Virus record (IMG/VR): IMGVR_UViG_2639762884_000001
DNA from: a virus
Taxonomy: Duplodnaviria; Heunggongvirae; Uroviricota; Caudoviricetes
DNA: 64,000 nucleotides
Reading direction: 5' to 3' (one strand)
Under the pieces are notes generated by a model that saw nothing but the letters and a program-made list of their open reading frames with translations, searched no databases and was not told where the DNA came from. Within the stretch, counting starts at the first letter, position 1; each line of letters opens with the position of its first letter. This document shows, in pieces, positions 10,895 to 63,509 of the stretch. The translations under genes were made by a program, and so were the position numbers.

Positions 10895-10940
10895 CTGAGA
10901 AGAGGGCCAGAAACGGCCCTTTCTCTATAGCCACCAGCTG

Positions 10941-11060
10941 CCGCAGGGAAATTTTCAGAGACGGCGAGGAACGTATTCATGAGCCGACGGGAAACGGCCA
11001 GGATTTTTTCGGGAAACGGCTGCATTCGCCTTTGTGTAGAAAAAACATCGGGAAGCTGGT
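10941..11060. repeat. iteron-like direct repeats (GGGAAACGGC), cluster 2
   Basis: agagacggcg 10957, gggaaacggcc 10989, gggaaacggctg 11011, gggaagctgg 11049; the ttttcagag and ggctgcat contexts match cluster 1. Confidence 0.65.
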
Positions 11061-11481
11061 GGAATCCAACCAGCGGTTGTCGGACAGGTGAGCGGGGAAA
11101 ATCATGATGACTTTCGTCGCCTGAGACATCCAGATTTCTTTCGTAGCGTAATCACATATGTGATTAAGTGGTGTGATTATGTGAAAAATCACGCGCACAT
11201 AATACGCGAGCGGATACGGAACAAAACAAAATGCCGATCCGCGCCGACAAATAAACGCGGATCATAAAGCAAGACTAAAAGCCAATGATTAACCATACTC
11301 TATAGCGCAATATAACGCGTTTTAAGCGCGTTAATGTGTTAAGTAATGGGTATGTACTGGTAAGGATATAAAATCGCGTCTATGGCGTTATTTTGGCGCT
11401 TATTTTTATGTTGTTGGAGTGAGTTAAAGACAATAAAAAACGTGCTAATGATGGCGCGTTATGGTGGGAGTATTGGAAACG

Positions 11482-11510
11482 AAAAAAGCGCCCATAGTGG
11501 GCGCTCGATT
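11482..11510. terminator. bidirectional terminator hairpin (GCGCCCA-TAG-TGGGCGC)
   Basis: Stem 11488-11494 / 11498-11504 flanked by an A-run and T-rich tract; ends the leftward operon. An identical hairpin recurs at 11983-11999. Confidence 0.75.
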
Positions 11511-11741
11511 TTATTTGTGTAAACTGATTTTAAATCCCATTTCTACAAACGCTTTTAACATTAAAAATATATCAGCGTCGTTCACGTCTGCTTTTTTTCG
11601 CTCCTGGTCGCTCAATAAGTCAATTTTGCGCGTCGTTTCATCTATAAGCTCGACTGCGCGCCCAGCGTAACCAGCGATCCCAGCGATGCGATTAACATAA
11701 TATTCGTTATGGACGTTAACGCCAGCGATAAGAACAAACAT
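11511..11741 (-). CDS. hypothetical protein (76 aa)
   Basis: ORF at the distal end of the leftward operon. Confidence 0.4.
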   Translation of the reverse strand: MFVLIAGVNVHNEYYVNRIAGIAGYAGRAVELIDETTRKIDLLSDQERKKADVNDADIFLMLKAFVEMGFKISLHK

Positions 11742-11761
11742 GATTAAGCTCCTTAAAAAAA

Positions 11762-11965
11762 TTAAATAGAATTTTGAAGTTTTCCGATTAATGCGCTTAA
11801 ACGTAAGTATTCACGTTTGCGCTTGCAATCTCGCTTGCTGTTAAGCAAATCAGAAAACGTAAAATTTAATTGGTCGCGTTGCGCGATCAAATCATCGATT
11901 AATTCCAGTTTATAAGCGCGATACTTTGCGCGATATTCCGCGCGGATCTTGTCATAGCTGACCAT
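11762..11965 (-). CDS. hypothetical basic protein (67 aa)
   Basis: Start moved to the ATG at 11965 (GGAG RBS) because the track N-terminus would be encoded by the hairpin at 11983-11999. Confidence 0.4.
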   Translation of the reverse strand: MVSYDKIRAEYRAKYRAYKLELIDDLIAQRDQLNFTFSDLLNSKRDCKRKREYLRLSALIGKLQNSI

Positions 11966-12013
11966 TTTTAAAGCTCCTTTAAAGCGCCCATAGTGGGCGC
12001 TTGATTCCATTAA

Positions 12014-12664
12014 TTACGCTTTGAAAGCATCAGCTAAATAATTGTAGAAATCATTTTTAATGAAGCGATATTGCTGAGTACCAGCTTTCGCGCTCCCAGC
12101 TCCTTTGACTTTTTCAACAAGTCCAAGACGTTCGCAAAGATTGATCAACTGGTTGGCTTGAGTATAGCCAGCGTCCAATTTAATTTCACACGCTTTTTTA
12201 GCTTCATTCATTAAATCGAAAACAGCGCCATTGGTGAACGTGTCGATCTCGTCGTTAATCATATCGATTAAAGCGAATACACGAGATCCTGACATATCAG
12301 CGATGGAATAAACGCATTTACCAGATTTAATTGATTTAACCAGATAAACCAGTTTTTCCAGAGAATAACTATTAGTCATTGCATCACGGAAAAATACTTC
12401 TGGCGCTTGTTTGCTTGCTTTAATCGCATAGTAAAAAACAGAGCATAATTTTTCGTCTTCTACAGCGTTTACAACGTTGTTGATGAAGTAAGCAAGTTTA
12501 GTGGTCGCAGCTTGCATATTTGCTTTGTCTGCTTTAGTGTGCGTACCATTTTTATAATGTTCGTTATATGTTTGAGTTGCCAGATCTGCTTTTTCGCGCA
12601 GCTCGTCGGATACAATAGATGCAGCTTCAATGATGGACTTTTTAGAAATGATAATGTTAGCCAT
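12014..12664 (-). CDS. hypothetical protein (216 aa)
   Basis: Long ORF; AT-rich promoter-like region 12665-12950 upstream. Confidence 0.55.
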   Translation of the reverse strand: MANIIISKKSIIEAASIVSDELREKADLATQTYNEHYKNGTHTKADKANMQAATTKLAYFINNVVNAVEDEKLCSVFYYAIKASKQAPEVFFRDAMTNSYSLEKLVYLVKSIKSGKCVYSIADMSGSRVFALIDMINDEIDTFTNGAVFDLMNEAKKACEIKLDAGYTQANQLINLCERLGLVEKVKGAGSAKAGTQQYRFIKNDFYNYLADAFKA

Positions 12665-12948
12665 GATAATTTTTCCTTATGTAAATTTAAAATTTATTGT
12701 CGTTAGCGTCTTCGCTTTCGACGAGTTCAATTATCGATACGCGAAAAAAGATTGCAAGTGTTTTTTTTAAAATTTTTTGCAGGGATGAAAGTCCTAGAAA
12801 TAAAAGCGAGATCGTCGAAGGTGTTCCCTAAATAAATAATCGATTCCGGCTTTAGACCTTATATATATTTAGGCTATTTGATTTGTAGATATAAAGAAGT
12901 GATGTGAAAAATAATAACCGGACTTAGCCGGTTATTAACCTTATAGAT

Positions 12949-13257
12949 TTATTGAACAGACTCTACAGCCTTACGATTGGTGTCAAATAGCGCATCAACG
13001 AACTGTGCCGATGACTCGCTAGATTCGCAATCCAACATTGCCCGTTCTTCATTTGCCACTTTCTTACACAGTTCCATATTCTCACCTATCGCTTTTCCTG
13101 CTTTTACGGCTGCCGAAAATTGATACATGCAAACTGATACATTCTGAGACGTTGAGCACACGTCATTCATCAGCGACTGAATGACAGGCTTATAGTCCAT
13201 TGCATTTGCCGCAACTGAGCAAAGTAAAAATAATGGTGGTAACAATATCGATTTCAT
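12949..13257 (-). CDS. secreted/periplasmic small protein with signal peptide
   Basis: N-terminus MKSILLPPLFLLCSVAANA is a typical Sec signal peptide; several Cys. Confidence 0.5.
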   Translation of the reverse strand: MKSILLPPLFLLCSVAANAMDYKPVIQSLMNDVCSTSQNVSVCMYQFSAAVKAGKAIGENMELCKKVANEERAMLDCESSESSAQFVDALFDTNRKAVESVQ

Positions 13258-13260
13258 AAC

Positions 13261-13863
13261 TCAAAAAGGCAAAATTCGTTCAACCCAATCGAACAAAACA
13301 ACTATTTTTCTACCGTTCTCGACACGTAGTGTAACCTGACAAGCATCTGCGCCTGCTGACACCCCCTCAATTTCACGGCCATCCGCCATGTACACCCTTA
13401 TAGATTTGTTTGCTTTATAGGCTTGGTTGCAAATTGCAAAAAAATCGCGGCGTGATGGCCGATTATCGACATAATCAGGGTGAACTGTTAATCGACCTTT
13501 GAAATCGTGAGCGATACTGTCAACCACACCTGATTCAATTGTACTAATGCGTTCAAGTGGGAGCCTTATACGATTTTCTTTGTCAAAAGGGGCTGGGCAA
13601 AGGTCAACTTTGTTGCGAGATGGCATGAGGCCATAAACGTACATGCAAAACGCCTGACCATCTTCGAGAGTGACCCTTACAGGAATTTGTTCTCTGCGCC
13701 AGAACATCAGTAGTTTTTCAACGTTAGTGTAATCTCGCGGCAAGAGTTCAGCTTGGATACCGTAGGTAATATCTTTGGTTGTCATGTCATCACAGAGTTG
13801 TTGGCAGAATGTCGATGTCACCAGAATTGCTGGTGAACACCCTGAACGCTTTTGTGTCTCCAT
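13261..13863 (-). CDS. hypothetical protein (200 aa)
   Basis: ORF; no motif recognised. Confidence 0.5.
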   Translation of the reverse strand: METQKRSGCSPAILVTSTFCQQLCDDMTTKDITYGIQAELLPRDYTNVEKLLMFWRREQIPVRVTLEDGQAFCMYVYGLMPSRNKVDLCPAPFDKENRIRLPLERISTIESGVVDSIAHDFKGRLTVHPDYVDNRPSRRDFFAICNQAYKANKSIRVYMADGREIEGVSAGADACQVTLRVENGRKIVVLFDWVERILPF

Positions 13864-14212
13864 TCTTCAGAGTCGTTTCTCGCTCTTGACGAGCGGGGTT
13901 TAGAGCACATAAACCTGCACCTTCAAGAGATGCACCCACAATTAATTCTCCGGCATTTAAATGGAAAGTCGCTTTTTCGCCTGTAGCCAGTTTTGCGACA
14001 GTTTCGCCATTGATGAAAATGGAAGCATCACATCCAGCTCCTACAAAACCTGTGTCTCTCATTACCACCAACGTAGCTGGCGCTGCGCTTTGATACTTGA
14101 ACACTTTGGCCTGCGGTGCTGGTTTGGCGTCATGGATTGATATTGGACGTGATTGGCACGCGGTAAGCATCAACACTGGTAACGTTAGTAGAGGGAGAAG
14201 CGAGTATTTCAT
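13790..14212 (-). CDS. putative lipoprotein
   Basis: MKYSLLPLLTLPVLMLTAC lipobox signal peptide from the ATG at 14212; alternative upstream start 14254 has an AGGGAG RBS. Confidence 0.55.
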   Translation of the reverse strand: MKYSLLPLLTLPVLMLTACQSRPISIHDAKPAPQAKVFKYQSAAPATLVVMRDTGFVGAGCDASIFINGETVAKLATGEKATFHLNAGELIVGASLEGAGLCALNPARQERETTLKNGDTKAFRVFTSNSGDIDILPTTL

Positions 14213-14280
14213 GTTAGTTTTAGAACAGAAAGTGAACAGTATGGGAGACTTCATCTTTGTCTCCCTAATTGATAGCGTGA

Positions 14281-14559
14281 TTATTTTAATCTGCTTAATA
14301 GCGTTTCGAGATCTTCCTTTGTCATATTAGAGTTCTCATAGATACGCATGATTTTCTCACGAGTCTTAGCGGAAGCCCCGACAGAAGATATAACCTTGTC
14401 AAAGTCGGCCATTGTCAATTGTTCCAGAATGGTATTAATGACTTCAGCCTTAGACATTTTGATATTTTTTTCTTTTAGTTTCACTTGAAACTTTCCAAGT
14501 TTGTCATTGGCCTTATCAGACAATGCTACCTGACAGTAAGTTGTTTTCTTTTCACTCAT
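14281..14559 (-). CDS. hypothetical protein (92 aa), Lys-rich
   Basis: ORF immediately downstream of the helicase gene on the minus strand. Confidence 0.45.
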   Translation of the reverse strand: MSEKKTTYCQVALSDKANDKLGKFQVKLKEKNIKMSKAEVINTILEQLTMADFDKVISSVGASAKTREKIMRIYENSNMTKEDLETLLSRLK

Positions 14560-14561
14560 AA

Positions 14562-16121
14562 CTAATCTCGTTTCAGAACTCCAAAATCGAATGCTCCATC
14601 AATAGGCAATACACCTTCTGCAAAGCCAGGTGTGGTGTCGATGATGTGTTTTCGCTCATAAGAGTGAGACAACAGGTATTTGTTGCTAATGTCAATGAAA
14701 TCAGTGATAAAACACACGTTTGCCTGATTTTTTTTGGCTCGTAAGCCACGACCGACACGCTGTCTCATTTCAACTTCTGCTTTCCCACCACCAGCAAGAA
14801 TGACCGCACCAACGCTTGGCACATCAACACCAACATCCAGAATAGTCGAGCCTATTAAAACATCTATTTCACCAGACGCTAAACTGTTCAGCTTTGCTTG
14901 CCTTGTCGTCTGGTTAGATTCCCCATAGATGAAATCAACTCTAAGACCTGACTCCTTCATCATCTCCATCAGGATTTGCCCGTGGCGTTTAAGACGAACC
15001 AGAGTCATGCAGTTGAGTGAATGTTGCTTATAAAGCAATGCCTCGCGCACTATGGCCTCGTTACGTCCCAAATTATACACGATCCCCAACTGATAAGCCT
15101 TTTGGTAGGCGGTGCTCATACCAACTCTAAAATTGAGATGTTTGTTGGCAAGTTCGGCCTTGATTCTGGCCTCGTCTGGCTTGTAGGCAACTTTATGATA
15201 AAGGAAGTACGGCTTTGCCAGAATGCCTCGATCAATCAGGTACTTTTCTGTGACTTTAATTTCAATTCGCCCGGCCACCGCCATCAGGCGCATGTTGGCT
15301 TCCGTCGAATCCTTCATGAACGGCGTGGCTGTAAGCGCCAGACGATAGTCTGCGTTCACACATAATCTGGCGATGTCATAGAAATTTGAGCCTGAAGACT
15401 CATGCGCCTCTTCCAGAATAAGAAGAGAGACACTTGAAAGGAAGCGTTTCACCAACTCCCGACGTTTGAGGTGGTAGCTTTTCTTATCTGGTGTTGCATC
15501 GCGTGGTGGTTCTTCGAGGAAACTTGCAAGAGTTTGAACTGTAGCGACGTTGATATGTCGTGATACCTGGAACTCACCCGAGCCAATGACTCCAACCTTT
15601 TGGTCTTTTAACCACGGTTCGCCATTTTTGGCGCGGTAGTCGATGGATCTCTGGAAGTTTTCGGCCATTTGAAACATCAGAACAGAGCGGGTTGTTAAAA
15701 ATAATGTCATTCGACCGATACGTGCAGCTGCTTTGCAGGCAACATTAGATTTCCCGCCACCAGTAGCGATCTGCGCAATCATCATTCCCTCTCGAACCAG
15801 TGTTTCCACAGTCTGATCCTGATACGCATAATCAGGATTGTATGGGAATGGGTTAACCGCCGGATTTGGTTTTCCAAGCGCCGGGGCTTTGTCTTTGCGG
15901 ATATGAACACATTTGATGCCCGCCTTGTTCAAGTTCGCCGCTACAGGCTTGGCAAAGCCTGCAGGGAACGAGTTTTTACTCCAGTTGAACATTGTGCTTG
16001 TGCCCTTCCAGTCGCCAGTCTCGACTTCGTAGCTCAACATCTGTTGCACCAGTTGCTTTACCTTGTCATCTGCGCCAGAAATAAGCGCATTAACTGCGTT
16101 AGATACAATCCGAACAGTCAT
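14562..16121 (-). CDS. superfamily 2 (DEAD/DEAH-type) helicase
   Basis: Walker A IATGGGKS, motif II LILEEAHE, motif III TATP, and a C-terminal helicase domain. Confidence 0.8.
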   Translation of the reverse strand: MTVRIVSNAVNALISGADDKVKQLVQQMLSYEVETGDWKGTSTMFNWSKNSFPAGFAKPVAANLNKAGIKCVHIRKDKAPALGKPNPAVNPFPYNPDYAYQDQTVETLVREGMMIAQIATGGGKSNVACKAAARIGRMTLFLTTRSVLMFQMAENFQRSIDYRAKNGEPWLKDQKVGVIGSGEFQVSRHINVATVQTLASFLEEPPRDATPDKKSYHLKRRELVKRFLSSVSLLILEEAHESSGSNFYDIARLCVNADYRLALTATPFMKDSTEANMRLMAVAGRIEIKVTEKYLIDRGILAKPYFLYHKVAYKPDEARIKAELANKHLNFRVGMSTAYQKAYQLGIVYNLGRNEAIVREALLYKQHSLNCMTLVRLKRHGQILMEMMKESGLRVDFIYGESNQTTRQAKLNSLASGEIDVLIGSTILDVGVDVPSVGAVILAGGGKAEVEMRQRVGRGLRAKKNQANVCFITDFIDISNKYLLSHSYERKHIIDTTPGFAEGVLPIDGAFDFGVLKRD

Positions 16122-16166
16122 AAACCTCTTTCCTTAGTGCCTTTTGTATGTTATTTGGCTATTATG

Positions 16167-16186
16167 ATAGGTAAGTGATTACTTAG
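16167..16186. promoter_or_regulatory. class B palindromic motif (ATAGGTAAGTgatTACTTAG)
   Basis: In the divergent intergenic region between the helicase operon and the ParB-like gene. Confidence 0.5.
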
Positions 16187-16884
16187 TGGATTGTAGCAAT
16201 AAAATGGATGTAAAAATCACGATTTTGCAGGTTGATGTTGCCAACCTTCGCCCGAATACCTGGAACACCAATTCGGTTGGTGCGCAGAATTTTGAAAAAC
16301 TGAAAGGTTCTATCGAAAAATTGGGCTTTTTTAAGCCAATTTTGGCTCGTGAACTTGAAGATGGATTTTTTGAAATCCTCGGCGGCGAACATCGCTGGCG
16401 TGCCGCTATTGAGCAAGGAATTTCAACGGTTCCAGTGCTTTCTGTGGGCAAAATTAGCGATGTCGTAGCTAAACAGATGTCACTGGTGGACAACGAGCGA
16501 TACGGTGAAGACGACCAAATCGCATTGCAACGCTTCATTGAAGAAATTCAGTCAGAACTTGACTATCAACTGTCTGAAATCGCCCCGTATGACGACGAAA
16601 TCTCGATGGTTTTAGCAAAAGAGGCGGCAATCGACCTTGAAGCACTGGAGGCGTTGTCTCGTGGTAGTGATGAGCCTGTCGATACCGACAAACGAGAGAA
16701 AACCGAACGTGTGGGGGCGGAACATCAGACCATGCGCTTCAAAGTAACTTTCGATGCGTCAGATCGTGTTGCAGAAACCATAAAAAACATCATCAAAGAG
16801 CAGGCTATTAACACCGGTAATGAAATGGAGAACGCTGGTGAGGCTCTGGTGTGGCTGGTCGACTACTACAAGGAGCGTATGTAA
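16186..16884 (+). CDS. ParB/Srx-like N-terminal domain protein 1
   Basis: ILGGEHRWRAA matches the ParB/sulfiredoxin GxxRxxA box; acidic C-terminal half. Track start is GTG; ATG at 16204 is an alternative. Confidence 0.7.
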   Translation: MDCSNKMDVKITILQVDVANLRPNTWNTNSVGAQNFEKLKGSIEKLGFFKPILARELEDGFFEILGGEHRWRAAIEQGISTVPVLSVGKISDVVAKQMSLVDNERYGEDDQIALQRFIEEIQSELDYQLSEIAPYDDEISMVLAKEAAIDLEALEALSRGSDEPVDTDKREKTERVGAEHQTMRFKVTFDASDRVAETIKNIIKEQAINTGNEMENAGEALVWLVDYYKERM

Positions 16885-17552
16885 TGACCAAAAAGTTTGA
16901 AATCGTATATCGCGACCCGGCAGATCTTATTCCCTATGAGATGAATGCCAAAAAGCATGATGAACAGCAGATCCGAGATCTAGCCGCAGCCATTAAAAAG
17001 CGCGGATTTGACCAGCCAATTACGGTCGATAAGAACGACGTAATTATTACTGGCCACGGCCGCCGTGAGGCTGCAATTTTTGCTGGACTTGAGCGCGTAC
17101 CGGTTATTGTTCGCGATGATCTCAGTGATGACGAGGTTCGTGCGAAGCGCCTTGAAGATAACCGACTTGCCAGCATTGATTACGATGCAATTAAGCTACA
17201 GAAAGAGCTTGAGTCGCTTGTTCTGGACGATATCGAGGTTTTCGGCTTTGAAGAGCGTGAGTTGAATGTTCTCGTTGGCAGCATGACAGAAGAAATGGAC
17301 ACCGACTCGCTAGTTATCGATCTTGGCGAAGAAACTAAACGACAGAAGGATGAACACACCGAGATCAGTCGTGAAGTTGCAGCGGAAGAAGTACGTGTTG
17401 TCGACGTATTGGGCTTTAAAACGCTTCCTGCTGGCTCTGCCATTGTTGTTGGTGATTTGCTTGCCCACATGGAAGAAATGACGGGAGAAAGCGGGGTAGA
17501 CGCATTTGTGGCATATGCGGAGAAGATCTCTTCCGGGGAGATGGCTGCATGA
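16884..17552 (+). CDS. ParB/Srx-like N-terminal domain protein 2
   Basis: IITGHGRREAA ParB box; AAGGAG RBS; start overlaps the preceding stop (TAATG). Confidence 0.7.
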   Translation: MTKKFEIVYRDPADLIPYEMNAKKHDEQQIRDLAAAIKKRGFDQPITVDKNDVIITGHGRREAAIFAGLERVPVIVRDDLSDDEVRAKRLEDNRLASIDYDAIKLQKELESLVLDDIEVFGFEERELNVLVGSMTEEMDTDSLVIDLGEETKRQKDEHTEISREVAAEEVRVVDVLGFKTLPAGSAIVVGDLLAHMEEMTGESGVDAFVAYAEKISSGEMAA

Positions 17553-18214
17553 GCAAATACATCATCAACGTATCGTTTCAGACACGCGTAAATAAAACCA
17601 CGCGCACGTTGGAAATCGCTGAGTCGTTCGGGCTTGGCCTGGACGAAAAAGAGTGGACGCTTTACGACAATCTGGAGCTGGAAGTGAAGCAGGGCGATGT
17701 GGTGTACATCACCGGCCAATCCGGTTCCGGCAAATCCGTTGTGCTGCGCGAGTTGCAACGACAGATGAAGGATGAAGGGCTGTCTGTAGCCTCCATCGAT
17801 GATTTTACCTTCGATAATGAGGTTAACGTCATCGATCAGTTGGGCAAAACGACCAGCGATGCGCTTGGGTTGTTATCTATGGCTGGTCTGAACGATGCAT
17901 ATCTGTTTGTTCGCAAGCCTTCTGAAATGTCAGACGGTCAGAAATATCGTCTCAAGATTGCCAAACTGATTGAGTCAGGCGCTAAAGTGTGGGCTGCTGA
18001 CGAGTTCGGTGCTGTTCTAGACCGTGTAACCGCTCAGGTTGTGGCATCTAACCTCCAGCGTGCCGCTCGAAAGGTTGGTGCGACGGTAATGGTGGCGACG
18101 ACTCACGAAGACCTGAAGAACGCGCTGCGCCCGGATATGCAGATCACCAAGCACTACAAAGAACGCGTGAAGGTGGAATATCACAATGGTAGTCATGATG
18201 AGGTTCATTTATGA
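17549..18214 (+). CDS. soluble ABC-type ATPase
   Basis: Walker A GQSGSGKS, signature-like MSDGQKYRL, Walker B VWAADEF, H-loop ATTHE; 221 aa with no transmembrane domain. Confidence 0.8.
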   Translation: MSKYIINVSFQTRVNKTTRTLEIAESFGLGLDEKEWTLYDNLELEVKQGDVVYITGQSGSGKSVVLRELQRQMKDEGLSVASIDDFTFDNEVNVIDQLGKTTSDALGLLSMAGLNDAYLFVRKPSEMSDGQKYRLKIAKLIESGAKVWAADEFGAVLDRVTAQVVASNLQRAARKVGATVMVATTHEDLKNALRPDMQITKHYKERVKVEYHNGSHDEVHL

Positions 18215-19101
18215 CGGACATCATCATTAAACGCTACCGCCCTGAAGAGTTTCCGCGTCATCTGGACTTTCTGGAGCGAATGACTGTCACAAAGGGAACT
18301 GTAGAGGACTGGCACGCTCTTAAGTCGCTTCACTACAAAACAGACGGCAAACCTTTCGCGCCAACTTACTATCGCTGCGAACTTGATGACCGTCTGGTGG
18401 GCGTCGTGGTTATGGCTTACCCGAAACTACTGCTGGCACCTCGCCACCGCATGTTTCCTAAGTTGAAACCAACCACTAATACCACCGTGGCTAACCAGTA
18501 CTGGGGTCGGTACGTGAATAACAACTTTGCGGTGATCAGTCGCTCAGTTGTGGATACTCAGTATCGTGGCGTAGGCGTCTCTTATCGAATGATTAACCTG
18601 GTTAGCAGGATGCATGACCGGCCAATCATTGAGATCCAGTCCTCGATGAGCAAATACAATCCCTTCGCCATGAAAGCAGGGTTTAAGTTCATCCGCCCTG
18701 AGCGACCGAAGAGCTATGAAAGTGCACTGCGTGTATTCCAGCGCCATTTCCGTTCCGACCCGGGTGATAACGAGGCGATCGTCAAAGAGTTGTTCGCAAT
18801 GAGCGAGTCTCGTCGTCGCCGTGCACTGCGTGATCTGGTGGCGGACTACCACAAGAACAGTTCCCTGGCAAAAGCTGGGCGGAATCGTGGCACGACGATT
18901 CAGGACATTGCCGACAGTCTGGTGGACGAGGCCAGCATTGTGAAGCTGCTCAAGGACATTCACAACCTGAGCTTTACGTCTCCGTTGTATGGTGTGTACC
19001 GAAACCCTGACTTTGGCCGTCGACTGCCTGACACGCTGCCACTGCTGGCATTCGACAAACAACCTTTGGATAAACCGTTAGAAATTGCTTTACCGGCATA
19101 A
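18211..19101 (+). CDS. GNAT-fold acetyltransferase-like protein
   Basis: Motif A QYRGVGVS (Q/R-x-x-G-x-G) and downstream NPFAMKAGFKF; roughly 120-aa C-terminal extension. Confidence 0.55.
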   Translation: MTDIIIKRYRPEEFPRHLDFLERMTVTKGTVEDWHALKSLHYKTDGKPFAPTYYRCELDDRLVGVVVMAYPKLLLAPRHRMFPKLKPTTNTTVANQYWGRYVNNNFAVISRSVVDTQYRGVGVSYRMINLVSRMHDRPIIEIQSSMSKYNPFAMKAGFKFIRPERPKSYESALRVFQRHFRSDPGDNEAIVKELFAMSESRRRRALRDLVADYHKNSSLAKAGRNRGTTIQDIADSLVDEASIVKLLKDIHNLSFTSPLYGVYRNPDFGRRLPDTLPLLAFDKQPLDKPLEIALPA

Positions 19102-41942: not shown

Positions 41943-44900
41943 ATGTGGTACAGGGAAGGTACTATCACATTTACACAGGGTAGCAATACTCTGGTTGGGG
42001 CAGGGACAGCCTGGAACGTAACAGCTAATGGTGTGTTGCCGGGGATGATCGTCATTGGCCCCGACAATAAGCTGTATGAGATCAAGCGCGTAATAAGCGA
42101 TACGAATATTGTTCTCTCAGAACCTTATACCGGCGAAACTCAGTCTGAGGTTCCGTGCCGAATCATTACGACCTATGAAGGCGACTTAACACAGTTTAGC
42201 GCGCGCTTTACTGCGCTAATGTCGCGTATGTCGGCTGATTCCAAGTCCATGCGCAGTTGGTTGACTGCGCTGGATGAGGTGACAATCGAGCGTGAAGACG
42301 GTACAGAAGTGACCGTTAAGCCGCTGATACAGATTGTCAACGAGCACAACGAAAACGTTGAGTGGTATAAAAATAACACCGACGCGATTGACGCTGCTGG
42401 CGACAAAGCTCGTGAGGCGGCGGCCAGTGCTGCCGCAGCAGCAGAAAGCGCCAATACCGCTGGAGAAAAAGCCTCTCAAGCGTCTCAAAGTGCATCCGCT
42501 GCAGAGTCCTCAAAAAGCGCGGCGGCCACCAGTGCCGGTGCCGCGAAAACGTCTGAAACGAATGCTGCAGCGTCACAAAAATCTGCAGCCACTTCTGCAT
42601 CCACCGCGACCACGAAGGCGTCAGAAGCTGCCACCTCAGCCCGGGATGCGGCGGCCTCAAAAGAGGCAGCGAAATCATCAGAAACGAGCGCAGCCTCGAG
42701 CGCCAGTAATGCCGCTTCCTCGGCAACGGCGGCAGGAAATTCCGCGAAGGCGGCAAAAACGTCCGAGACGAACGCCAGGTCTTCTGAAACGGCAGCGGGA
42801 CAGAGCGCCTCAGCTGCGGCAGGCTCAAAAACAGCGGCTGCATCATCTGCCAGTGCCGCGTCAACAAGTGCCGGGCAGGCCTCAGCCAGTGCCACCGCCG
42901 CCGGAAAATCGGCAGAAAGCGCCGCATCATCCGCTTCAACAGCCACAACGAAGGCTGGCGAAGCCACTGAACAGGCCAGCGCAGCAGCGAGGTCAGCTTC
43001 CGCAGCGAAGACATCCGAAACGAACGCGAAAGCGTCGGAAACCCGTGCAGAATCCTCAAAAACGGCAGCCGCATCGTCCGCCAGTTCGGCAGCGTCATCG
43101 GCATCATCTGCGTCTGCTTCAAAAGATGAGGCGACCAGACAGGCGTCAGCAGCGAAGGGCAGCGCCACGACGGCATCCACGAAAGCAACAGAGGCGGCAG
43201 GCAGTGCGACGGCAGCATCTCAGAGCAAAACTGCTGCTGAATCCGCTGCGACCCGTGCGGAAGCTGCTGCTGATCGTGCTGAAGAGATTGCCGGTGCAGT
43301 TGCGATGGAAGACGCAAGCCTTACAACTAAAGGTGTTGTGAAACTTAGCAGTGCTGTCGATAGCACCAGTGAATCGCTGGCCGCAACGCCAAAAGCAGTT
43401 AAGGCCGCATATGATAATGCTGAAAAAAGACTACAGAAGGATCAGAATGGTGCTGATATCCCAGACAAGGGCCGCTTCCTGAGTAACATTAATGTTTACA
43501 GCAAAGGTGAAGTGGATAAGAAAAAGGGGATGCGAAAATACACTTTCTCTGCTCCTGCAAATGCAGTAAGCGGTAAGTGGTATCCTGTAGTCTTTCGCCG
43601 AACTGGTGGTGGCACAGATGAATTAGCCTCACGAGTGGTTATCACCACTTATTCCTCAGCTGGCGGATACGCTATGAATAATTGTGAGTTTAATGGTTTT
43701 GTTATGCCGGGCGGTTGGTCTGATCGCGGTTCATATGCTGTTGGTTTTTTCTCAATATATTCAACCGTTGAACGATCTATACACTCGATTATCGCAAGCG
43801 TGAAAGATGATGATTTGTGTAGTGTATTTTACGTTGAGACAAGAGCATTCCCTATCCAGATTTTTGCTGAGGAAGGATTAAATGTGATTGTTCCAACGGC
43901 TGATTATGCAGTTGGTCAAACCACTTATAAGTGGGGGGCCACTGATCCTTTATCAGAAAGTACGAATGCACAGATAATTTTGGACTTTAAAAATGGACGA
44001 GGTTATTACTGTTCACATCCATTTATTTCAAGTCTTTCAGGAAATGCTGCTACAGCAACGAAATTACAGACGGCAAGATCTATCGGTGGAGTTGGTTTCG
44101 ACGGTTCTGCCAATATTAATCTTCCAGGTGTAAACACTACGGGTAATCAGAACACCACTGGTAATGCCGCAACTGCTACAAAACTACAGACGGCAAGAAC
44201 TATCGGCGGCGTGAGCTTTGATGGTACTGCAAATATTAATTTGCCAGGTGTTAATACGACTGGTAATCAGAATACAACAGGTAATGCGGCTACTGCTACG
44301 AAGTTGCAGACTGCGCGTACTATTAATGGGGTGTCGTTTGACGGTTCGGCAAATATTTCCTTGTCACCAGCAAATATAGGTTGCCCAGCATCTCCTACTG
44401 GTTGGTTAACTACAGGAAGTAATGGCGGAGCAATAACAACAGCCCAGTTAGTGACGTTATTGCAAAATAATGGAGCCTTTAACACAAAGGCATGGATTGC
44501 TCGATGTGCGTGGGCCTATGCCAATAGCGCAACCATACCAAATAGTGAAACTGGTTGTGGCGTTATTCCATTGGCAGGAGCTGTTATAGAAGTATTTAAT
44601 AACGGTAGTAGTTCAAATAATTATACGATCCGCATAACAACGGCCACAACGACAAGTGTTTCCGGTGCTCTCACTAATGCGGAGTTTATCTATGTATTTA
44701 ATGGCACAGATTATTCTCCAGGATGGCGAAGAGTATATAACACGAAAAACAAACCAACAGCCTCTGATGTCGGTGCATTACCTCTTACCGGTGGTACATT
44801 ATCTGGAGGTTTGACATCTTCTGGCGAGATCATTTCAAAATATGCAAATGGTTTCCGCATTGCTTACGGTAGCTTTGGGTTCTTTATCCGTAATGATGGA

Positions 44901-45980
44901 TCGAACACATATTTCATGCTAACAGCATCAGGAGACACATTAGGTTCATGGAACGGTTTGCGACCTATTACAATTAATAATACCAGCGGTGCTGTATCAA
45001 TTGGTAATGGACTAAATGTGACTGGTGGCGTAAATGGTAGTTTGAACGGTAATGCTTCAACAGCTACGAAGTTGCAAACAGCGAGAAACATCAATGGTGT
45101 TAAGTTTGATGGCTCAGGCGATATCAACATTAATACATTGGTATCTCGTGGCCGAGTTACGGCGTTAAGCGGTTCTACTCAAGGTACTGCTGGCATTCAA
45201 ATGTACGAGGCGTACAACAATAGCTACCCGACCACGTATGGCAACGTATTGCACATGAAAGGTGCGAGTGCTGCTGGTGAGGGCGAGTTGCTTATTGGCT
45301 GGAGTGGTACGAGCGGTGCACATGCGCCGGTTTTCATTCGCTCCAGAAGAGATACCACTGATGCGGCATGGTCAGCGTGGGCGCAGGTATATACCGCTAA
45401 GGATTCAATCCCTGGTGTGAATACAACCGGTAATCAGAATACTACTGGTAATGCCGCAACAGCCACAAAATTGCAGACAGCAAGGAAAATTGCTGGTGTG
45501 GCGTTTGATGGCTCTGCCGATATAACTTTGACTGCGGCTAACCTTAATGCTTACACGAAAACAGAGGTAACAAACCTTCTAAGTTCCTATGTGAAGAGCA
45601 GTGCTCTTCCAAGCATGACTGTGCGAACTTCCTCTGTTTCAGGTGGGGATATGGGCATGAGCTTGTCCGCATTCATTAGCCACCTAAAATCAAATGGGGC
45701 GTTTAGCAAAAGTTATTGGATTGGCTTTGGCGATGCTATGGGATTCAATGCTGGCAGTATCAACAATATAACGGGATTTGGTGCTGTAGAATTAGCAGAA
45801 TCTATAATCGAAGTTTTTAATCTACCTAACGGTGATTATACAATTCGTTTAACAACGTCACATAAAGCTGACTACGGTGGAGTTACAAACGCAATCCTCG
45901 TTTATCACTACCGTAGTAATAGAAGTCCGTCAGGTCAATGGCTGAAATTTGCAGGTACTGTTGGGGCAACAAGTAACTGA
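41943..45980 (+). CDS. side tail fibre protein
   Basis: 1345 aa; long Ala/Ser/Thr-rich low-complexity stalk (about 42400-43300) and repeated GNQNTTGNAATATKLQTAR-I-GV-FDGSANINL units typical of phage tail-fibre repeats. Confidence 0.8.
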   Translation: MWYREGTITFTQGSNTLVGAGTAWNVTANGVLPGMIVIGPDNKLYEIKRVISDTNIVLSEPYTGETQSEVPCRIITTYEGDLTQFSARFTALMSRMSADSKSMRSWLTALDEVTIEREDGTEVTVKPLIQIVNEHNENVEWYKNNTDAIDAAGDKAREAAASAAAAAESANTAGEKASQASQSASAAESSKSAAATSAGAAKTSETNAAASQKSAATSASTATTKASEAATSARDAAASKEAAKSSETSAASSASNAASSATAAGNSAKAAKTSETNARSSETAAGQSASAAAGSKTAAASSASAASTSAGQASASATAAGKSAESAASSASTATTKAGEATEQASAAARSASAAKTSETNAKASETRAESSKTAAASSASSAASSASSASASKDEATRQASAAKGSATTASTKATEAAGSATAASQSKTAAESAATRAEAAADRAEEIAGAVAMEDASLTTKGVVKLSSAVDSTSESLAATPKAVKAAYDNAEKRLQKDQNGADIPDKGRFLSNINVYSKGEVDKKKGMRKYTFSAPANAVSGKWYPVVFRRTGGGTDELASRVVITTYSSAGGYAMNNCEFNGFVMPGGWSDRGSYAVGFFSIYSTVERSIHSIIASVKDDDLCSVFYVETRAFPIQIFAEEGLNVIVPTADYAVGQTTYKWGATDPLSESTNAQIILDFKNGRGYYCSHPFISSLSGNAATATKLQTARSIGGVGFDGSANINLPGVNTTGNQNTTGNAATATKLQTARTIGGVSFDGTANINLPGVNTTGNQNTTGNAATATKLQTARTINGVSFDGSANISLSPANIGCPASPTGWLTTGSNGGAITTAQLVTLLQNNGAFNTKAWIARCAWAYANSATIPNSETGCGVIPLAGAVIEVFNNGSSSNNYTIRITTATTTSVSGALTNAEFIYVFNGTDYSPGWRRVYNTKNKPTASDVGALPLTGGTLSGGLTSSGEIISKYANGFRIAYGSFGFFIRNDGSNTYFMLTASGDTLGSWNGLRPITINNTSGAVSIGNGLNVTGGVNGSLNGNASTATKLQTARNINGVKFDGSGDININTLVSRGRVTALSGSTQGTAGIQMYEAYNNSYPTTYGNVLHMKGASAAGEGELLIGWSGTSGAHAPVFIRSRRDTTDAAWSAWAQVYTAKDSIPGVNTTGNQNTTGNAATATKLQTARKIAGVAFDGSADITLTAANLNAYTKTEVTNLLSSYVKSSALPSMTVRTSSVSGGDMGMSLSAFISHLKSNGAFSKSYWIGFGDAMGFNAGSINNITGFGAVELAESIIEVFNLPNGDYTIRLTTSHKADYGGVTNAILVYHYRSNRSPSGQWLKFAGTVGATSN

Positions 45981-47465: not shown

Positions 47466-47613
47466 GACGCAGGCTCCAGGCGTGCTATTCTGCGATGCTG
47501 CAAATCCTATCTATGTGAGTAGAGAGGATTTTATGACTGAGGAAACGGAGCGACAGTTGCTTATCCACAATACGATAGGTGAAAGGCTGTGTGAGTGGGG
47601 GCACCTGAACTGA
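47386..47613 (+). CDS. o-spanin (Rz1-like) lipoprotein candidate, overlapping and extending beyond the i-spanin gene
   Basis: MKRLMKCGKKMPLVFIASC signal peptide with IASC lipobox; starts inside 47214..47465 in a different frame. Confidence 0.5.
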   Translation: MKRLMKCGKKMPLVFIASCLINGCVIKTQAPGVLFCDAANPIYVSREDFMTEETERQLLIHNTIGERLCEWGHLN

Positions 47614-47837
47614 GTCGATGATTGATGAGTGGTCTCAGTTTACCTTTTATCCTAAAGATGGCATCTTCACTCATATACACGCCTGTTCACTCAAGCTCAT
47701 GTTGAATCATTTAGTAATTTGATGTAGATTTATTAGGCATCCACGTAAGTGGACACATACAGGCTACGCATCCTCGTAGCCTTCAACCCCGAGAGGGGTG
47801 CCGCAATGACACTTGTGTTAACGGCTAAGGTGGACAC

Positions 47838-48221
47838 ATGCTGAACGAGAAACGTTCTATACAAACTATTCGCGATTGCACGAGTATTATCGAGACTCAT
47901 GTGCTGAATCAGCACAAGCTTGAAGTACGTAAGCTCAATAATGACGCTATTGAACCGGAAGACTCACGCTTCATCGTTACCTTCAAAGACGATGTTGAGC
48001 GCGCTGGTGCAAGCGTGAAGCCATTAGCTGAAGCAATTTACCTGAATGGTCGTGTTCGTTTTGTAGTCAAGCCAGCTAAACAGTACCCTGAGCTGTCTCG
48101 TTTTATCGAGGCTTTTTCGGAGGTTATTGAACATTCTATTCGCCGCTTCTTACGCAATCATGGTAGCATTGTCAGCACGGTTAAGGCTGATGATTCTGCT
48201 ACAAAATGGCTCCTACACTAG
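47838..48221 (+). CDS. hypothetical protein (127 aa)
   Basis: ORF; upstream region carries direct repeats GTGGACACAT at about 47748 and 47826. Confidence 0.45.
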   Translation: MLNEKRSIQTIRDCTSIIETHVLNQHKLEVRKLNNDAIEPEDSRFIVTFKDDVERAGASVKPLAEAIYLNGRVRFVVKPAKQYPELSRFIEAFSEVIEHSIRRFLRNHGSIVSTVKADDSATKWLLH

Positions 48222-48958
48222 ATAGCGCATATTCAAAAGATCTAAGCGAGTTTCCTCATAAAGGGGAGACTCGTGTTGTTCGTTTTGGCTTTCTTATCAA
48301 TGAAGCCTCCCTCTATAAAATCTCAGAAATTGAAATCATTGAACCAGAAGATGACATTTGCCTGTATGTCTCTATGGAACGTGTAGGTGCGCGCGACCAA
48401 GGCGACCTGAGCGAATTCATCTTAGATCGAGCGGATGAAGATGCCCCTGAAGAAGAGATTATCAAAGAGGTGCTCCAGTCCGGGCTTCTGGACGAAAACA
48501 AAAATACGATCGCTGGTAGGATAGCTCTGCGTGAATATAGTTTTGTTGAAGACGGTAATGAGATCGAATGTTACCAGGTAGCCGGTGTCGAAACTGTCAG
48601 AGAGCGTCGTCAGCGAGGATTGTGTCACCGTACCTATCTCTTTCTTCTTCATTGGTATGAGCATTTAGTCTGCGACGATACACAAACCATTCCTGGTGCT
48701 AAGATCTGGGCAGGGCCTCTCATGCGAACCGGCGATGTGCGTATATACAATGCCAAAACAGAAACGTTCGAGGATGTGTTAGGTGAGTACGGGATGGGGA
48801 AAGAAACCGGATTTTTGCCGTGGAACAGAGGATTGTTGCTTGATGCAGAGTTAAGCTCTTGGCTCCCAAACAAAGTGCAAGTTAACGTTCAGAAATTTAT
48901 CGTACTTATCATCTCCCGCAAAACAAGAACTCCAGTAGGTTTATACCTAAAAGATTAA
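48206..48958 (+). CDS. hypothetical protein (250 aa)
   Basis: ORF overlapping the upstream gene end; strong terminator downstream. Confidence 0.5.
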   Translation: MAPTLDSAYSKDLSEFPHKGETRVVRFGFLINEASLYKISEIEIIEPEDDICLYVSMERVGARDQGDLSEFILDRADEDAPEEEIIKEVLQSGLLDENKNTIAGRIALREYSFVEDGNEIECYQVAGVETVRERRQRGLCHRTYLFLLHWYEHLVCDDTQTIPGAKIWAGPLMRTGDVRIYNAKTETFEDVLGEYGMGKETGFLPWNRGLLLDAELSSWLPNKVQVNVQKFIVLIISRKTRTPVGLYLKD

Positions 48959-48976
48959 AAATCAGGCGACTTTGGT
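48954..48976. terminator. bidirectional Rho-independent terminator
   Basis: AGGCGAC-TTTG-GTCGCCT flanked by AAAAA and TTTTT. Confidence 0.85.
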
Positions 48977-49083
48977 CGCCTTTTTGTTAACAGCCATTGA
49001 TTCTCGCCTAAAAATTCTAAGGCAGCACCTACCATTTAACCTTTACACCACAGCCGTAGGCATTTAGGCTATATCACATATAA

Positions 49084-53775: not shown

Positions 53776-54957
53776 ATGAGCCTTTATGTTATATCAACAT
53801 TTAGGTTGGTCACAATATTGCCTGTTAAAAGTGGAATTATCGTGAGCGAGCTGAAAGAGCTAATTACCGAATTAGATTTTGAACAATGGTTGGACACTGA
53901 AGGTATCGTTTATCGACGTGGAGGCGTGAGTGCTCGCGGTCGTGAAGTGAATATCAAGGAGTGTCCGGTATGCGGCAGCTCCAACTGGAAGGTATATTTC
54001 AATCTGACCAGTGGCGTCGGCAAATGCTTCGCTGGTGATCATCCCGAAGAGATTCAGTTCAATAAGCTGGTCTTCCTCAAGCACTACAGCGGTAAATCAC
54101 GACGACAGTTCGAGGAATATGTGCAGAACGCTCTTCTTTCCCAGGGGTGGGCACCAAAGAAAGAAGAGATAGTGCTTACAAGCACAGTCGAGTTAGAGGG
54201 ACCACTTGCACTCCCTCGTCATTACGAACTTCCTATAGATGGCCGTCTTCCAGACTATCTGGTTGAACGAAACATATCGCCTGAAATGGCAAAGTATTTT
54301 GACCTACGATACTGCGTCGAAGGCAAGCACGCTTATGTAGATCCGTATACAGATCAGGTAAAAGGACAGATATTCGATATGCGAGTACTGATACCGGTTT
54401 ACGATCTGGATGGGGTAATGAAGACATTTCAGGGACGAGACATTACCGGTACAGCAGACCGCCGCTACCTCTTTCCTATGCAGCTTCCAGCTTCAGGTAA
54501 GTTTCTCTACAACGGCCATAATGCAGTTGGCAAACAGACTGTAGTTGTCTGTGAGGGGGCGTTCGATGTTATGGGAGTTAAACGAGCTATTTTTGACGAA
54601 GAAACATTACGTGATTACGTGGAACCAATAGGAACGTTCGGGATGCATCTATCTGGCAACACCACTCAGGATGCAGAAGATCAGCTGGGCGCGTTCCTGA
54701 CGCTCAAGGCGCGTGGATTACGTAATGTGATCATGATGTGGGATAGTGAAAAGCAAGCTATACGCAACACTATGGCCGCAGCCAGGCGACTCACAAGTAT
54801 TGGTCTTAATGTCAAAGTTGCGTGTTTGGGCGAGGAAGGACTCGACCCCGGCGATGCGACACCGGGGCAGATTATCAAAGCCTACTATTGCGCAAAACCT
54901 TATTCACGACAGCTTGAACTCTTAAGCAAGGTGAAAGGCATTGCAGCACTAGTTTGA
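53776..54957 (+). CDS. DNA primase (zinc-finger plus TOPRIM)
   Basis: CPVCGSSNW...GKCFAGDH zinc ribbon and VVVCEGAFD TOPRIM-like motif; the start is uncertain (track 53704). Confidence 0.75.
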   Translation: MSLYVISTFRLVTILPVKSGIIVSELKELITELDFEQWLDTEGIVYRRGGVSARGREVNIKECPVCGSSNWKVYFNLTSGVGKCFAGDHPEEIQFNKLVFLKHYSGKSRRQFEEYVQNALLSQGWAPKKEEIVLTSTVELEGPLALPRHYELPIDGRLPDYLVERNISPEMAKYFDLRYCVEGKHAYVDPYTDQVKGQIFDMRVLIPVYDLDGVMKTFQGRDITGTADRRYLFPMQLPASGKFLYNGHNAVGKQTVVVCEGAFDVMGVKRAIFDEETLRDYVEPIGTFGMHLSGNTTQDAEDQLGAFLTLKARGLRNVIMMWDSEKQAIRNTMAAARRLTSIGLNVKVACLGEEGLDPGDATPGQIIKAYYCAKPYSRQLELLSKVKGIAALV

Positions 54958-56094: not shown

Positions 56095-56327
56095 GTTTTT
56101 TTTTCTGTTGATATAGGATGAACAGTTTAGACGCGGCAAGCGTCAAGTGTGCGAAAAAGGGTACTTAAATTTAGTTAATATGTCAGCTTTGTTGATTTAG
56201 TTTAAGGTCGGTAAAGTTACTGGGAAACTAATAACCATAAGAAATAGTACGCCATTTAATTATTGTGGCACTGCTCGTGTTTTGATTAACTAATACCTGC
56301 GATAAATATAAATAAAGGGAAGCCAAC

Positions 56328-56741
56328 ATGAGCAAAAATAAGCTGATTTTAACAGGAGCTTTATTGTCTTTGTTTGCTTTAGTGGGGTGTAAGCCTACAG
56401 ACGAGAAGGCTATTGCTCTGGGCCAACAAGCAATTGCGGATGATATGAAAGATCCCACGTCGGTGATGTTTAGGAAAGATAAGTTTGTCAGGACTGATCA
56501 TGACGATGGGAGTGTGACAGGCTTTGTGTGCGGAGAATTGAACGCCAAAAATGGCTTTGGTGCATACGTGGGCTATCACTCATATGTTGTTGAACTCGAA
56601 ATGAAACCAAAGGGCATGTTTTCGAAAGGGGTGGTATACAAAATCCTATCGAAGTCGTTGGCACCTAATGATCCTCATGACTTACAGCGTTATAAGCAGG
56701 TCTACAGAAAGATGTGCAACAGTGAGGCTGTAGCTCATTAA
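56328..56741 (+). CDS. putative lipoprotein
   Basis: MSKNKLILTGALLSLFALVGC lipobox signal peptide; AAAGGGAAG RBS. Confidence 0.6.
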   Translation: MSKNKLILTGALLSLFALVGCKPTDEKAIALGQQAIADDMKDPTSVMFRKDKFVRTDHDDGSVTGFVCGELNAKNGFGAYVGYHSYVVELEMKPKGMFSKGVVYKILSKSLAPNDPHDLQRYKQVYRKMCNSEAVAH

Positions 56742-56804
56742 TGGTGAATGCCGGGCAGACTATAAGCCCGGCATCTTCGTATAGGGAACTATTGCGCCTA
56801 AAAT

Positions 56805-56825
56805 GATAAGTAGATACATACTTAG
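56805..56825. promoter_or_regulatory. class B motif (GATAAGTAGATACATACTTAG)
   Basis: Intergenic, upstream of 56867. Confidence 0.45.
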
Positions 56826-61161: not shown

Positions 61162-61166
61162 ATTTA

Positions 61167-61253: not shown

Positions 61254-61257
61254 AATT

Positions 61258-61822: not shown

Positions 61823-61829
61823 GGCTGGG

Positions 61830-63505: not shown

Positions 63506-63509
63506 TTTT

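Follow-up and report, generated by a model that had tools for sequence, protein, structure and literature searches.

The closest described relatives of the protein at the center of this study are the FljA repressors of flagellin. FljA(z66) has been shown experimentally to prevent the translation of fliC mRNA (PMC2652032), and the characterised members of the family all act on that message (PMC2652032; bioRxiv 10.1101/2025.10.27.684867). Here we describe an FljA-family gene in a different setting, a leftward cluster of eight genes (positions 16121 to 11511, minus strand) in a 64,000-nucleotide stretch of viral DNA, IMG/VR record IMGVR_UViG_2639762884_000001, which we call the window. An earlier reading of the sequence alone (the original prediction) had taken the cluster for a single operon in a lower-G+C segment and for a possible exclusion or defence island. 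Our analysis leads instead to a view of the cluster as part of the conserved backbone of a phage-plasmid of the SSU5/pHCM2/pMT1 type, organized in two leftward transcription units. As a whole, we consider this the best explanation, with a probability of about 0.5. Most of this backbone seems ordinary; to it is added one orphan regulator of moderate interest, the FljA homologue.

Over the 5.6 kb around the cluster, the window is 99.9% identical to the Escherichia coli plasmid pRHBSTW-00849_2 (CP056300.1), which is 110 kb long, IncFIB, and non-mobilizable. The Escherichia phages CMS-2020a, PhiR41_1, and Cyrano are 95–98% identical to the cluster region across the parts that align, Salmonella phage SSU5 is ∼80% identical, and 781 plasmids in PLSDB carry related regions, including pHCM2 of Salmonella Typhi, pMT1 of Yersinia pestis, and many Klebsiella plasmids. 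Because of these identities, we assign the window to an SSU5/pHCM2/pMT1-type phage-plasmid of E. coli. The element and its genes are thus not new to the databases, and the GenBank record of SSU5 labels the FljA gene “putative repressor of phase 1 flagellin.” In the full-text literature, we found no paper discussing the FljA homologue in SSU5, pHCM2, pMT1, or phage-plasmids generally. What is added here is a predicted tandem Sm-like fold, the core status of the gene regardless of host motility, the swapping of its alleles, and a reading of the Cyrano expression data for the cluster.

The eight minus-strand open reading frames (ORFs) all lie at the coordinates first assigned to them, and three of their start codons need comment. 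One is that of the FljA homologue, which had been described as a 200-residue unknown. The raw 200-residue ORF (13261–13863) overlaps the lipoprotein gene upstream; the protein is a 174-residue member of the FljA family (Pfam PF03614, Flag1_repress). Its start is almost certainly at 13785, as judged from the PGAP annotation of the 99.9%-identical plasmid, from homologues that begin MTITDITYG, and from a Pfam match that runs from residue 31. The family assignment itself is strong: the match scores 275.8 bits where the cut-off is 24, and it takes in profile positions 1–170 of 170. Residues 5–171 are 34% identical (E = 1e-32) to a “phase-1 flagellin repressor” encoded on the Salmonella linear plasmid p11-5006.1, where the gene lies after a flagellin gene. 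In fljB-type operons, FljA is encoded together with an alternative flagellin, usually behind an invertible promoter. By contrast, neither the window nor any of 14 relatives has a gene for flagellin or an invertase in the cluster or its flanks.

No solved structure is related by sequence to the FljA homologue. Its AlphaFold2 model (predicted local distance difference test score (pLDDT), 82; predicted template modeling score (pTM), 0.79) consists of two tandem modules, each of one helix and five strands. We interpret the model as two tandem Hfq/Sm-like domains, a predicted fold that fits an RNA-binding translational repressor, and it is very probable that the protein is a sequence-specific repressor of this kind. 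The family is tiny, with 28 clusters at 50% identity among 1.84 billion representative proteins. The SSU5-type proteins form a clade of at least 53% internal identity, which is ∼35% identical to the flagellin-linked clade. The N-terminal motif DI[TS]YG..AE.WPR[DE]Y is common to both, as is the C-terminal FDWV.RI.

The distribution of the gene sets it apart from the accessory genes around it. Four genes, those for the helicase, p92 (a lysine-rich protein of 92 residues), the FljA homologue, and p216, belong to the core of over 800 SSU5-type plasmids. When plasmids bearing the FljA gene, found by tblastn, were counted by genus and compared with those bearing the helicase gene, the numbers matched: 345 and 346 in Klebsiella, 229 and 228 in Escherichia, 92 and 92 in Enterobacter, and 62 and 62 in Yersinia. 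Thus, the FljA gene is retained in ∼100% of SSU5-type plasmids, including those of the classically non-motile Klebsiella and Y. pestis. The helicase gene was found in 1002 plasmids, and its product is 72–100% identical in all enterobacterial SSU5-type relatives examined. In a further 153 plasmids, all from Acinetobacter, the helicase is 42% identical to that of the window; these presumably represent a distant SSU5-like group. Because tblastn with the FljA homologue recovered no Acinetobacter plasmid in spite of these records, the FljA gene seems specific to the enterobacterial branch. A scan of a genome collection for FljA relatives returned only six loci, two of them from metagenome bins labeled Bacillota. 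SSU5-type sequence that includes the FljA homologue also occurs in bins labeled Bacillota and Candidatus Fimivivens (L008 and L009) and in a chimeric-looking Gemella morbillorum protein record (P0079); in all probability, this is enterobacterial phage-plasmid DNA that was mis-binned or is a contaminant.

The FljA gene is also unusual in its allelic history. Its ratio of nonsynonymous to synonymous divergence (dN/dS) is 0.07–0.20, indicative of purifying selection. Between the window and Cyrano, synonymous divergence (dS) rises from 0.10 in the helicase to 0.31 in p216, 1.08 in p92, and 1.26 in FljA, the most divergent gene that the two elements have in common; the two FljA proteins are 78% identical. 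The replaced DNA module spans 12951–14306, whereas the other DNA common to both elements is 87–99% identical genome-wide, nearly all of it above 93%. Comparison of the whole element (the window together with the rest of CP056300.1) with Cyrano revealed no other deeply divergent homologous segment. A pair of Klebsiella elements shows the same pattern in more extreme form, with a helicase dS of 0.017, an FljA dN of 0.21, and an FljA dS that is saturated. The gene thus exists as deeply divergent, ancient alleles that have been exchanged between near-identical backbones, each allele remaining under purifying selection.

The cluster is not quite the single operon first envisaged. A leftward run of genes is present, but an intrinsic terminator at 12937–12912, missed in the original prediction and located directly after the gene for the 102-residue secreted protein, divides it into two units. 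Unit 1 comprises the genes for the helicase, p92, the lipoprotein, the FljA homologue, and the secreted protein; unit 2 comprises those for p216, p67, and p76 and ends at a second terminator (11506–11486) that does not vary among the SSU5, pMT1, and Klebsiella relatives. Unit 1 is tightly packed at three of its four junctions, with gaps of 2 nucleotides (helicase–p92), 4 nucleotides (lipoprotein–FljA), and 3 nucleotides (FljA–secreted protein); the 26-nucleotide gap between p92 and the lipoprotein gene contains a Shine-Dalgarno sequence. We infer that the unit 1 promoter lies in the divergent intergenic region 16122–16203, where no strong sigma-70 consensus is found. The features of the locus are collected in Table 1.

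Table 1. Features of the leftward cluster and its flanks, by position in the window
Feature	Position	Strand	Remarks
Divergent intergenic region, helicase/first ParB-like gene	16122..16203	.	Presumed unit 1 promoter region; TAATCAC at 16175-16181
Superfamily 2 (SF2) DNA helicase, 519 residues, core gene	14562..16121	-	ResIII/DEAD and Helicase_C domains
p92, Lys-rich, 92 residues, core gene	14281..14559	-	Start 2 nt past helicase stop; phrog_1466, function unknown
Outer-membrane-type lipoprotein, accessory, variable slot 1	13790..14254	-	Lipobox LTAC; alternative start 14212 gives 140 residues
Orphan FljA-family protein, 174 residues	13261..13785	-	Raw 200-residue ORF extends to 13863
Secreted Cys-containing protein, 102 residues, accessory, variable slot 2	12949..13257	-	Signal peptide; phrog_9536, function unknown
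Intrinsic terminator, end of unit 1	12912..12937	-	10-bp stem then UUUUU; -12.6 kcal/mol, z -4.6
AT-rich spacer upstream of p216	12665..12948	-	284 nt, 31% G+C; promoter-like TTGCAA-N16-GATAAT at 12757-12730
p216, core protein, function unknown	12014..12664	-	Modeled N-terminal long-helix domain and C-terminal winged helix-turn-helix
Second hairpin copy, between p216 and p67	11982..12002	-	Stem present, followed by only UUU, short of a terminator U tract
p67, small charged protein	11762..11965	-	phrog_6145; raw ORF 82 residues
p76, small protein, function unknown	11511..11741	-	phrog_1585; indel difference vs SSU5; presence varies among relatives
Intrinsic terminator, end of unit 2	11486..11506	-	9-bp stem, first hairpin copy, then U6; -15.5 kcal/mol, z -4.1
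Conserved non-coding region between convergent genes	10895..11485	.	Hairpins, CGGGAAACGGC repeats, 16-bp palindrome

Published RNA-seq of E. coli LF82 carrying Cyrano (PMC9928086 Table S1; normalized counts) supports, by analogy, the division into two transcription units. In lysogens grown overnight in LB, the counts were 46 for the helicase homologue, 114 for that of p92 (CYRAN_117, the most highly expressed gene of the cluster), and 18 for FljA, with p216 (5.9) and p76 (5.0) at the local background of ∼5. The Cyrano FljA homologue rises from log2 4.2 to 7–8, or 8–16-fold, in cell-culture medium and inside macrophages. Because gene order around FljA differs in Cyrano, these data are supporting rather than direct evidence for the window element. 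The transcriptional silence of the p216 homologue in these lysogens points to separate control of unit 2. Most annotated Cyrano genes lie on one strand; the opposite strand has some six blocks, among them the helicase-to-p76 cluster. The remaining blocks are mostly expressed in lysogeny (toxin–antitoxin pairs, a putative repressor, and a MinD-like protein), and RepA is also encoded on that strand.

The gene content, family assignments, predicted folds, division into core and variable genes, allele swapping, and homologue expression in Cyrano described so far are observations; what we say about RNA binding by the FljA homologue and its target, and about the roles of the helicase, p92, and p216, is interpretation. 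By analogy with Cyrano, unit 1 would be transcribed during the plasmid state of the element. The FljA homologue most likely binds the 5′ leader of a specific mRNA and blocks its translation, as other FljA proteins do. We slightly favor a target that matters to the element itself, either a phage-plasmid mRNA or a conserved host mRNA, because the gene is core, is kept in non-flagellate hosts, and is present as swapped ancient alleles. Repression of host fliC in flagellated hosts could be an additional or alternative activity. A more specific proposal, that the orphan protein is an Hfq-like, allele-specific translational repressor controlling the lysis–lysogeny decision of the element, its copy number, or immunity against relatives, would make it a novel type of phage-plasmid regulator but is on balance unlikely.

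A number of points weigh against this account of the cluster and its regulator. Sequence searches identified no RNA target of the FljA homologue. When the fliC 5′ untranslated region and early coding sequence were searched against the window, the only notable hit was a 15-nucleotide exact match at 14430–14444 (AAGTCATTAATACCA, the first part of the E. coli fliC coding sequence; E = 0.005), which lies inside p92. It is absent from all relatives but the near-identical one, and we therefore judge it to be a chance match. A scan for patches that diverge together with the FljA allele yielded too many fine-scale divergent patches to interpret. Every experimentally characterised FljA represses fliC (PMC2652032; bioRxiv 10.1101/2025.10.27.684867), and the N-terminal motif is held in common with the flagellin-linked proteins. 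It may then be that host fliC is the sole true target and that Klebsiella elements have the gene as a result of host switching. The allele pattern may in part result from recombination driven by cargo exchange because the swapped module also holds both accessory slots. Finally, the structure of the FljA homologue is a prediction, and the expression data come from Cyrano, which has a different allele and a differing gene order at FljA.

The main rival explanation, and the closest surviving form of the exclusion idea in the original prediction, is lysogenic conversion of motility. Here, the orphan FljA would bind the leader of host fliC and lower flagellin in the lysogen, possibly only under host-associated conditions, whereas the lipoprotein and periplasmic protein would add envelope exclusion. 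The lysogen could gain through loss of a flagellotropic phage receptor, through lower recognition by TLR5 and NLRC4, or through energy saving. The strong family membership and the N-terminal motif common to fliC-repressing FljA proteins fit this explanation, as do the action of all characterised members on fliC mRNA (PMC2652032; bioRxiv 10.1101/2025.10.27.684867), the expression of the homologue in lysogens with its 8–16-fold rise in cell-culture medium and macrophages, and the fact that most host genera (Escherichia, Salmonella, Enterobacter, Citrobacter, and Cronobacter) are flagellated. It accounts less well for retention that is equally complete in Klebsiella (345/346) and Y. pestis (62/62), for a gene that is universal when the true accessory genes of the locus are patchy, and for the lack of a linked flagellin gene, which every characterised case possesses. 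S. Typhi strains with pHCM2, moreover, still type as H:d. LF82 carrying Cyrano is flagellated, and its flagella contribute to invasion (PMC4009794). We regard motility conversion as possible but doubtful. Another proposal is that the FljA protein serves immunity or incompatibility by repressing, in an allele-specific way, the translation of an SSU5-type gene that is essential or lytic. A resident element would thereby silence an incoming relative of the same allele, and frequency-dependent selection would maintain the deep allelic diversity. A core gene that is expressed in the plasmid state, is the most divergent one common to the window element and Cyrano, and exists as ancient alleles shuffled among near-identical backbones under purifying selection is what one would expect, as this pattern is typical of phage immunity regions. 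However, no operator or target that co-varies with the allele was found; Cyrano already encodes a conventional helix-turn-helix repressor (CYRAN_45) and a LexA-like S24 peptidase elsewhere in its genome; and hitch-hiking with the adjoining accessory slots, at recombination hot spots, could explain the allele pattern equally well. An immunity role in this form thus seems improbable.

The remaining alternative turns on the helicase, which would be the motor of an anti-phage defence or exclusion island, with the small proteins, the lipoprotein, and the secreted protein as effectors or sensors. The assignment to SF2 is borne out by matches to Pfam ResIII and DEAD (E = 1e-14) and Helicase_C (E = 6e-13) and to phrog_16, “DNA helicase” (E = 5e-93). 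In PADLOC, the helicase matches PbeA (79 bits), type IV restriction helicases, DpdF, and others, and in NCBIfam it matches the dnd restriction helicase domain; part of the block, in addition, has lower G+C and variable gene content. Yet these matches are confined to the generic core of the helicase and score well under the cut-offs (59.6 bits against 600 for TIGR04095). An identity with PbeA was rejected as generic SF2 similarity, unaccompanied by partner genes. The scores are likewise far below every NCBIfam equivalog cut-off (50 bits against 610 for the XPB model NF045503). p92 gave two marginal PADLOC hits (E = 0.006–0.008) and the other six proteins none, so that the seven proteins beside the helicase lack a significant match, and PADLOC-DB v2 finds no defence system, with its full set of components, in the cluster. 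The neighboring proteins look like regulators by fold. The original prediction had itself named homology to replication or nucleotide metabolism proteins as speaking against an exclusion role, and the nearest solved structures to the helicase are the repair and recombination helicases XPBII, RAD25, and T4 UvsW (the last at E = 5e-8 in PDB, C-terminal domain only). The block cannot be called compositionally distinct as a whole, either, because the helicase is average in G+C and because it, p92, FljA, and p216 belong to the core backbone, in which the helicase is 72–100% conserved. A defence island is therefore the least probable of these explanations, and very improbable in its own right. Returning to the backbone interpretation, we suggest that the helicase is XPB/UvsW-like and most likely serves recombination-dependent DNA metabolism of the element. 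Cyrano encodes UvsY-, gp32-, RecA-, SbcCD-, and RuvC-like proteins, a primase, and a separate helicase annotated “DNA Helicase.” Because it carries these recombination genes plus its own separate helicase and primase, the most economical reading is of an accessory recombination or repair helicase.

An exclusion role is easier to entertain for the two accessory proteins. The lipoprotein call is upheld by the canonical lipobox MKYSLLPLLTLPVLMLTA-C (L-T-A-C; consensus [LVI][ASTVI][GAS]C) in the translation and by a match to phrog_890, “lipoprotein” (E = 1e-51); the Pfam match to DUF2846 is weak. Its start is the second that needs comment: 14254 has a good Shine-Dalgarno sequence, and 14212 is used in the PGAP/RefSeq annotation of relatives. 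The mature protein is identical from either start, and the PHROG match reaches neither. The signal peptide of the 102-residue protein, with an A-N-A cleavage site in the translation, is likewise confirmed; the protein has several cysteines and, among phages, is confined to SSU5-type records. The genes for the lipoprotein and the secreted protein are accessory, being present in 9/14 and 4/14 relatives, respectively. Homologues of the lipoprotein, at 28–46% identity, occur in lambdoid, Pseudomonas temperate, and Vibrio anguillarum phages, and in the lambdoid phage mEp390 the gene is inserted between tail genes. Presence of the lipoprotein in 9/14 relatives and in unrelated phages, and of the secreted protein in 4/14 relatives, is the distribution of morons, but both genes are embedded in the operon with 3–26-nucleotide spacers, and the only terminator follows the 102-residue gene. 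Scans of Pfam, PHROGs, NCBIfam, and PADLOC with the two proteins found no member of the Llp, Cor, TraT, Sie, or Imm families. Recurring insertion of the lipoprotein family in temperate phages would be expected for envelope-acting genes of lysogenic conversion or exclusion. We propose that the lipoprotein and the periplasmic protein are interchangeable cargo in two slots flanking the FljA gene, plausibly acting on the envelope, and an exclusion role for them is possible. p92, the core protein between the helicase and this cargo, had no match in profile searches of Pfam and PDB; a ribbon-helix-helix-like pattern, judged by eye, suggests that it possibly binds DNA.

Unit 2 (p216, p67, and p76) would have its own AT-rich promoter region and end at the shared hairpin terminator. 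The p216 family is confined to SSU5-type elements, and its model has no full-length structural analogue in PDB or BFVD. p67 provides the third start codon in question: the 82-residue ORF in fact encodes a 67-residue protein starting at 11965, because its upstream extension contains the second copy of the 17-nucleotide hairpin described below. RefSeq (for SSU5) and PHROG 6145 call this protein an “MIT family metal ion transporter.” We reject that label; p67 is short and highly charged, and because it has no hydrophobic segment, the label looks like a propagated annotation error. The DNA carrying p67 (11759–11970) is absent in four of the loci compared (L002, L016, L008, and L015) and is an indel difference with Cyrano. 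p67 is missing from Cyrano-type relatives and p76 from SSU5-type ones; the window element has both (segments 11759–11970 and 11506–11771). In this respect, they act as alternative small cassettes. Their ribosome-binding contexts resemble each other (TTTAAAGGAGCTT and TTTTAAGGAGCTT), and the pair is flanked by copies of a repeated hairpin; recombination there could cause the cassettes to be gained and lost.

The 17-nucleotide hairpin itself, GCGCCCATAGTGGGCGC, occurs exactly twice, as had been noted, against a chance expectation of 0.01. The first copy lies where it was placed (11488–11504), and the second is at 11984–12000, 1 nucleotide from the position given for it (11983–11999). Both fold at about −15 kcal/mol. 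A U6 tract follows the first copy alone. After the second comes UUUAAAGGAG, which is the p67 ribosome-binding site; lacking a U tract, this copy would be an intercistronic stem-loop or weak attenuator. The lower G+C claimed for the segment applies to 11511–14559 (0.402) and not to the helicase gene (0.47), which by composition analysis is average for the window (mean, 0.462; standard deviation, 0.045 per 500 bp). The lowest values are found in p92 (0.358), p216 (0.379), and the spacer at 12665–12948 (0.313).

Downstream of the cluster, the ∼600-bp non-coding region 10895–11485 shows good conservation across SSU5, pMT1, and Klebsiella elements. It contains several G+C-rich hairpins (e.g. 11264–11235, at −18 kcal/mol) and three CGGGAAACGGC repeats at 10907–11020. 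An Rfam scan of 9–17 kb gave only sub-threshold chance hits, and consensus folding of 10895–11520 in six sequences predicted several hairpins with weak covariation (covariation term, −2.0 kcal/mol). An RNA gene is one possibility for the region; another is a site that functions as DNA, for example an origin or a site resembling a centromere. Small ORFs near its palindrome were rejected as genes; their reading frame is not conserved, and one is broken in SSU5. The palindrome, which had been described as operator-like, is present (AATCACATATGTGATT at 11150–11165, with two more TGTGATTA half-sites within 35 bp), but alone it does not exceed chance, as the window has three perfect 16-bp palindromes against 1.0 ± 1.0 expected. 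It is conserved in the closest relatives only. The half-site TAATCAC also occurs upstream of the helicase (16175–16181) and just past the p92 stop (14277–14283). As a window-wide operator half-site it was rejected, because its 12 sites against 8.2 expected are no enrichment and only the local cluster of three (11149–11179) stands out; a shared TAATCAC operator is only a guess.

On the other side of the cluster, between the helicase and terminase genes, 16204–19101 (plus strand) carries two genes for ParB N-terminal-domain proteins and genes for an ABC-type ATPase and a 296-residue protein, described by the Cyrano annotators as an ATPase fused to an acetyltransferase-like domain. The homologues of all four genes are silent in lysogens of Cyrano. 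The place that the genes occupy points to packaging or DNA processing rather than to partition of the plasmid. Other mosaic or indel segments relative to Cyrano (43420–45400, 47593–49027, 54942–56806, and 61163–63568) correspond to the distal tail-fiber region and a number of accessory slots, where variation is usual in the SSU5-type family. In Cyrano, toxin–antitoxin genes adjoin the slot after the lysis genes.

Phage-plasmids of the SSU5/pHCM2/pMT1 type are very common in clinical Enterobacterales, including carriers of resistance genes and the Y. pestis virulence plasmid pMT1, and their regulation is almost unstudied. Against a cluster that otherwise consists of ordinary backbone and interchangeable envelope cargo, a universally kept, lysogen-expressed FljA-type repressor offers a concrete, testable handle on that regulation. 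If the FljA homologue controls the life cycle of the element, an Sm-like translational repressor would have been put to a new use, and the flagellar phase-variation FljA proteins could be domesticated offshoots of a mobile-element regulator, or the reverse. If it instead modulates host flagellin in hundreds of clinical lineages, it would bear on motility, innate immune recognition, and H-serotyping.

Each component of the cluster resembles a known system in part. The helicase has the ResIII/DEAD and Helicase_C architecture of T4 UvsW and XPB/RAD25, its best solved-structure matches, and the Cyrano annotators named its homologue UvsW in a phage with a T4-like set of recombination genes; the similarity is weak, however (35–50 bits), and the N-terminal ∼95 residues match nothing. 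p216 differs from winged-helix regulators such as ArsR/MarR and TubR in having no sequence similarity to them and an extra, long N-terminal helical domain. The lipoprotein, like T5 Llp, Cor, TraT, and the moron lipoproteins, is a small, outer-membrane-type product of an optional gene. It departs from them in having no sequence match to characterised exclusion families in Pfam, PHROGs, or PADLOC and, in the window, no promoter or terminator of its own. The FljA homologue has the same length as the FljA proteins of Salmonella fljBA, pBSSB1 fljA(z66), and the flk/flm-type loci of E. coli, with which it is colinear throughout at 34–37% identity, and its predicted tandem Sm fold suits their known post-transcriptional action on fliC mRNA. 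It would fuse two Sm-like domains in each chain, whereas Hfq has a single domain and forms a hexameric ring. In contrast to the known FljA genes, it has no linked flagellin gene or invertase; it resides instead in the helicase operon of a phage-plasmid and is universal in that plasmid family, including in hosts that have no flagella.

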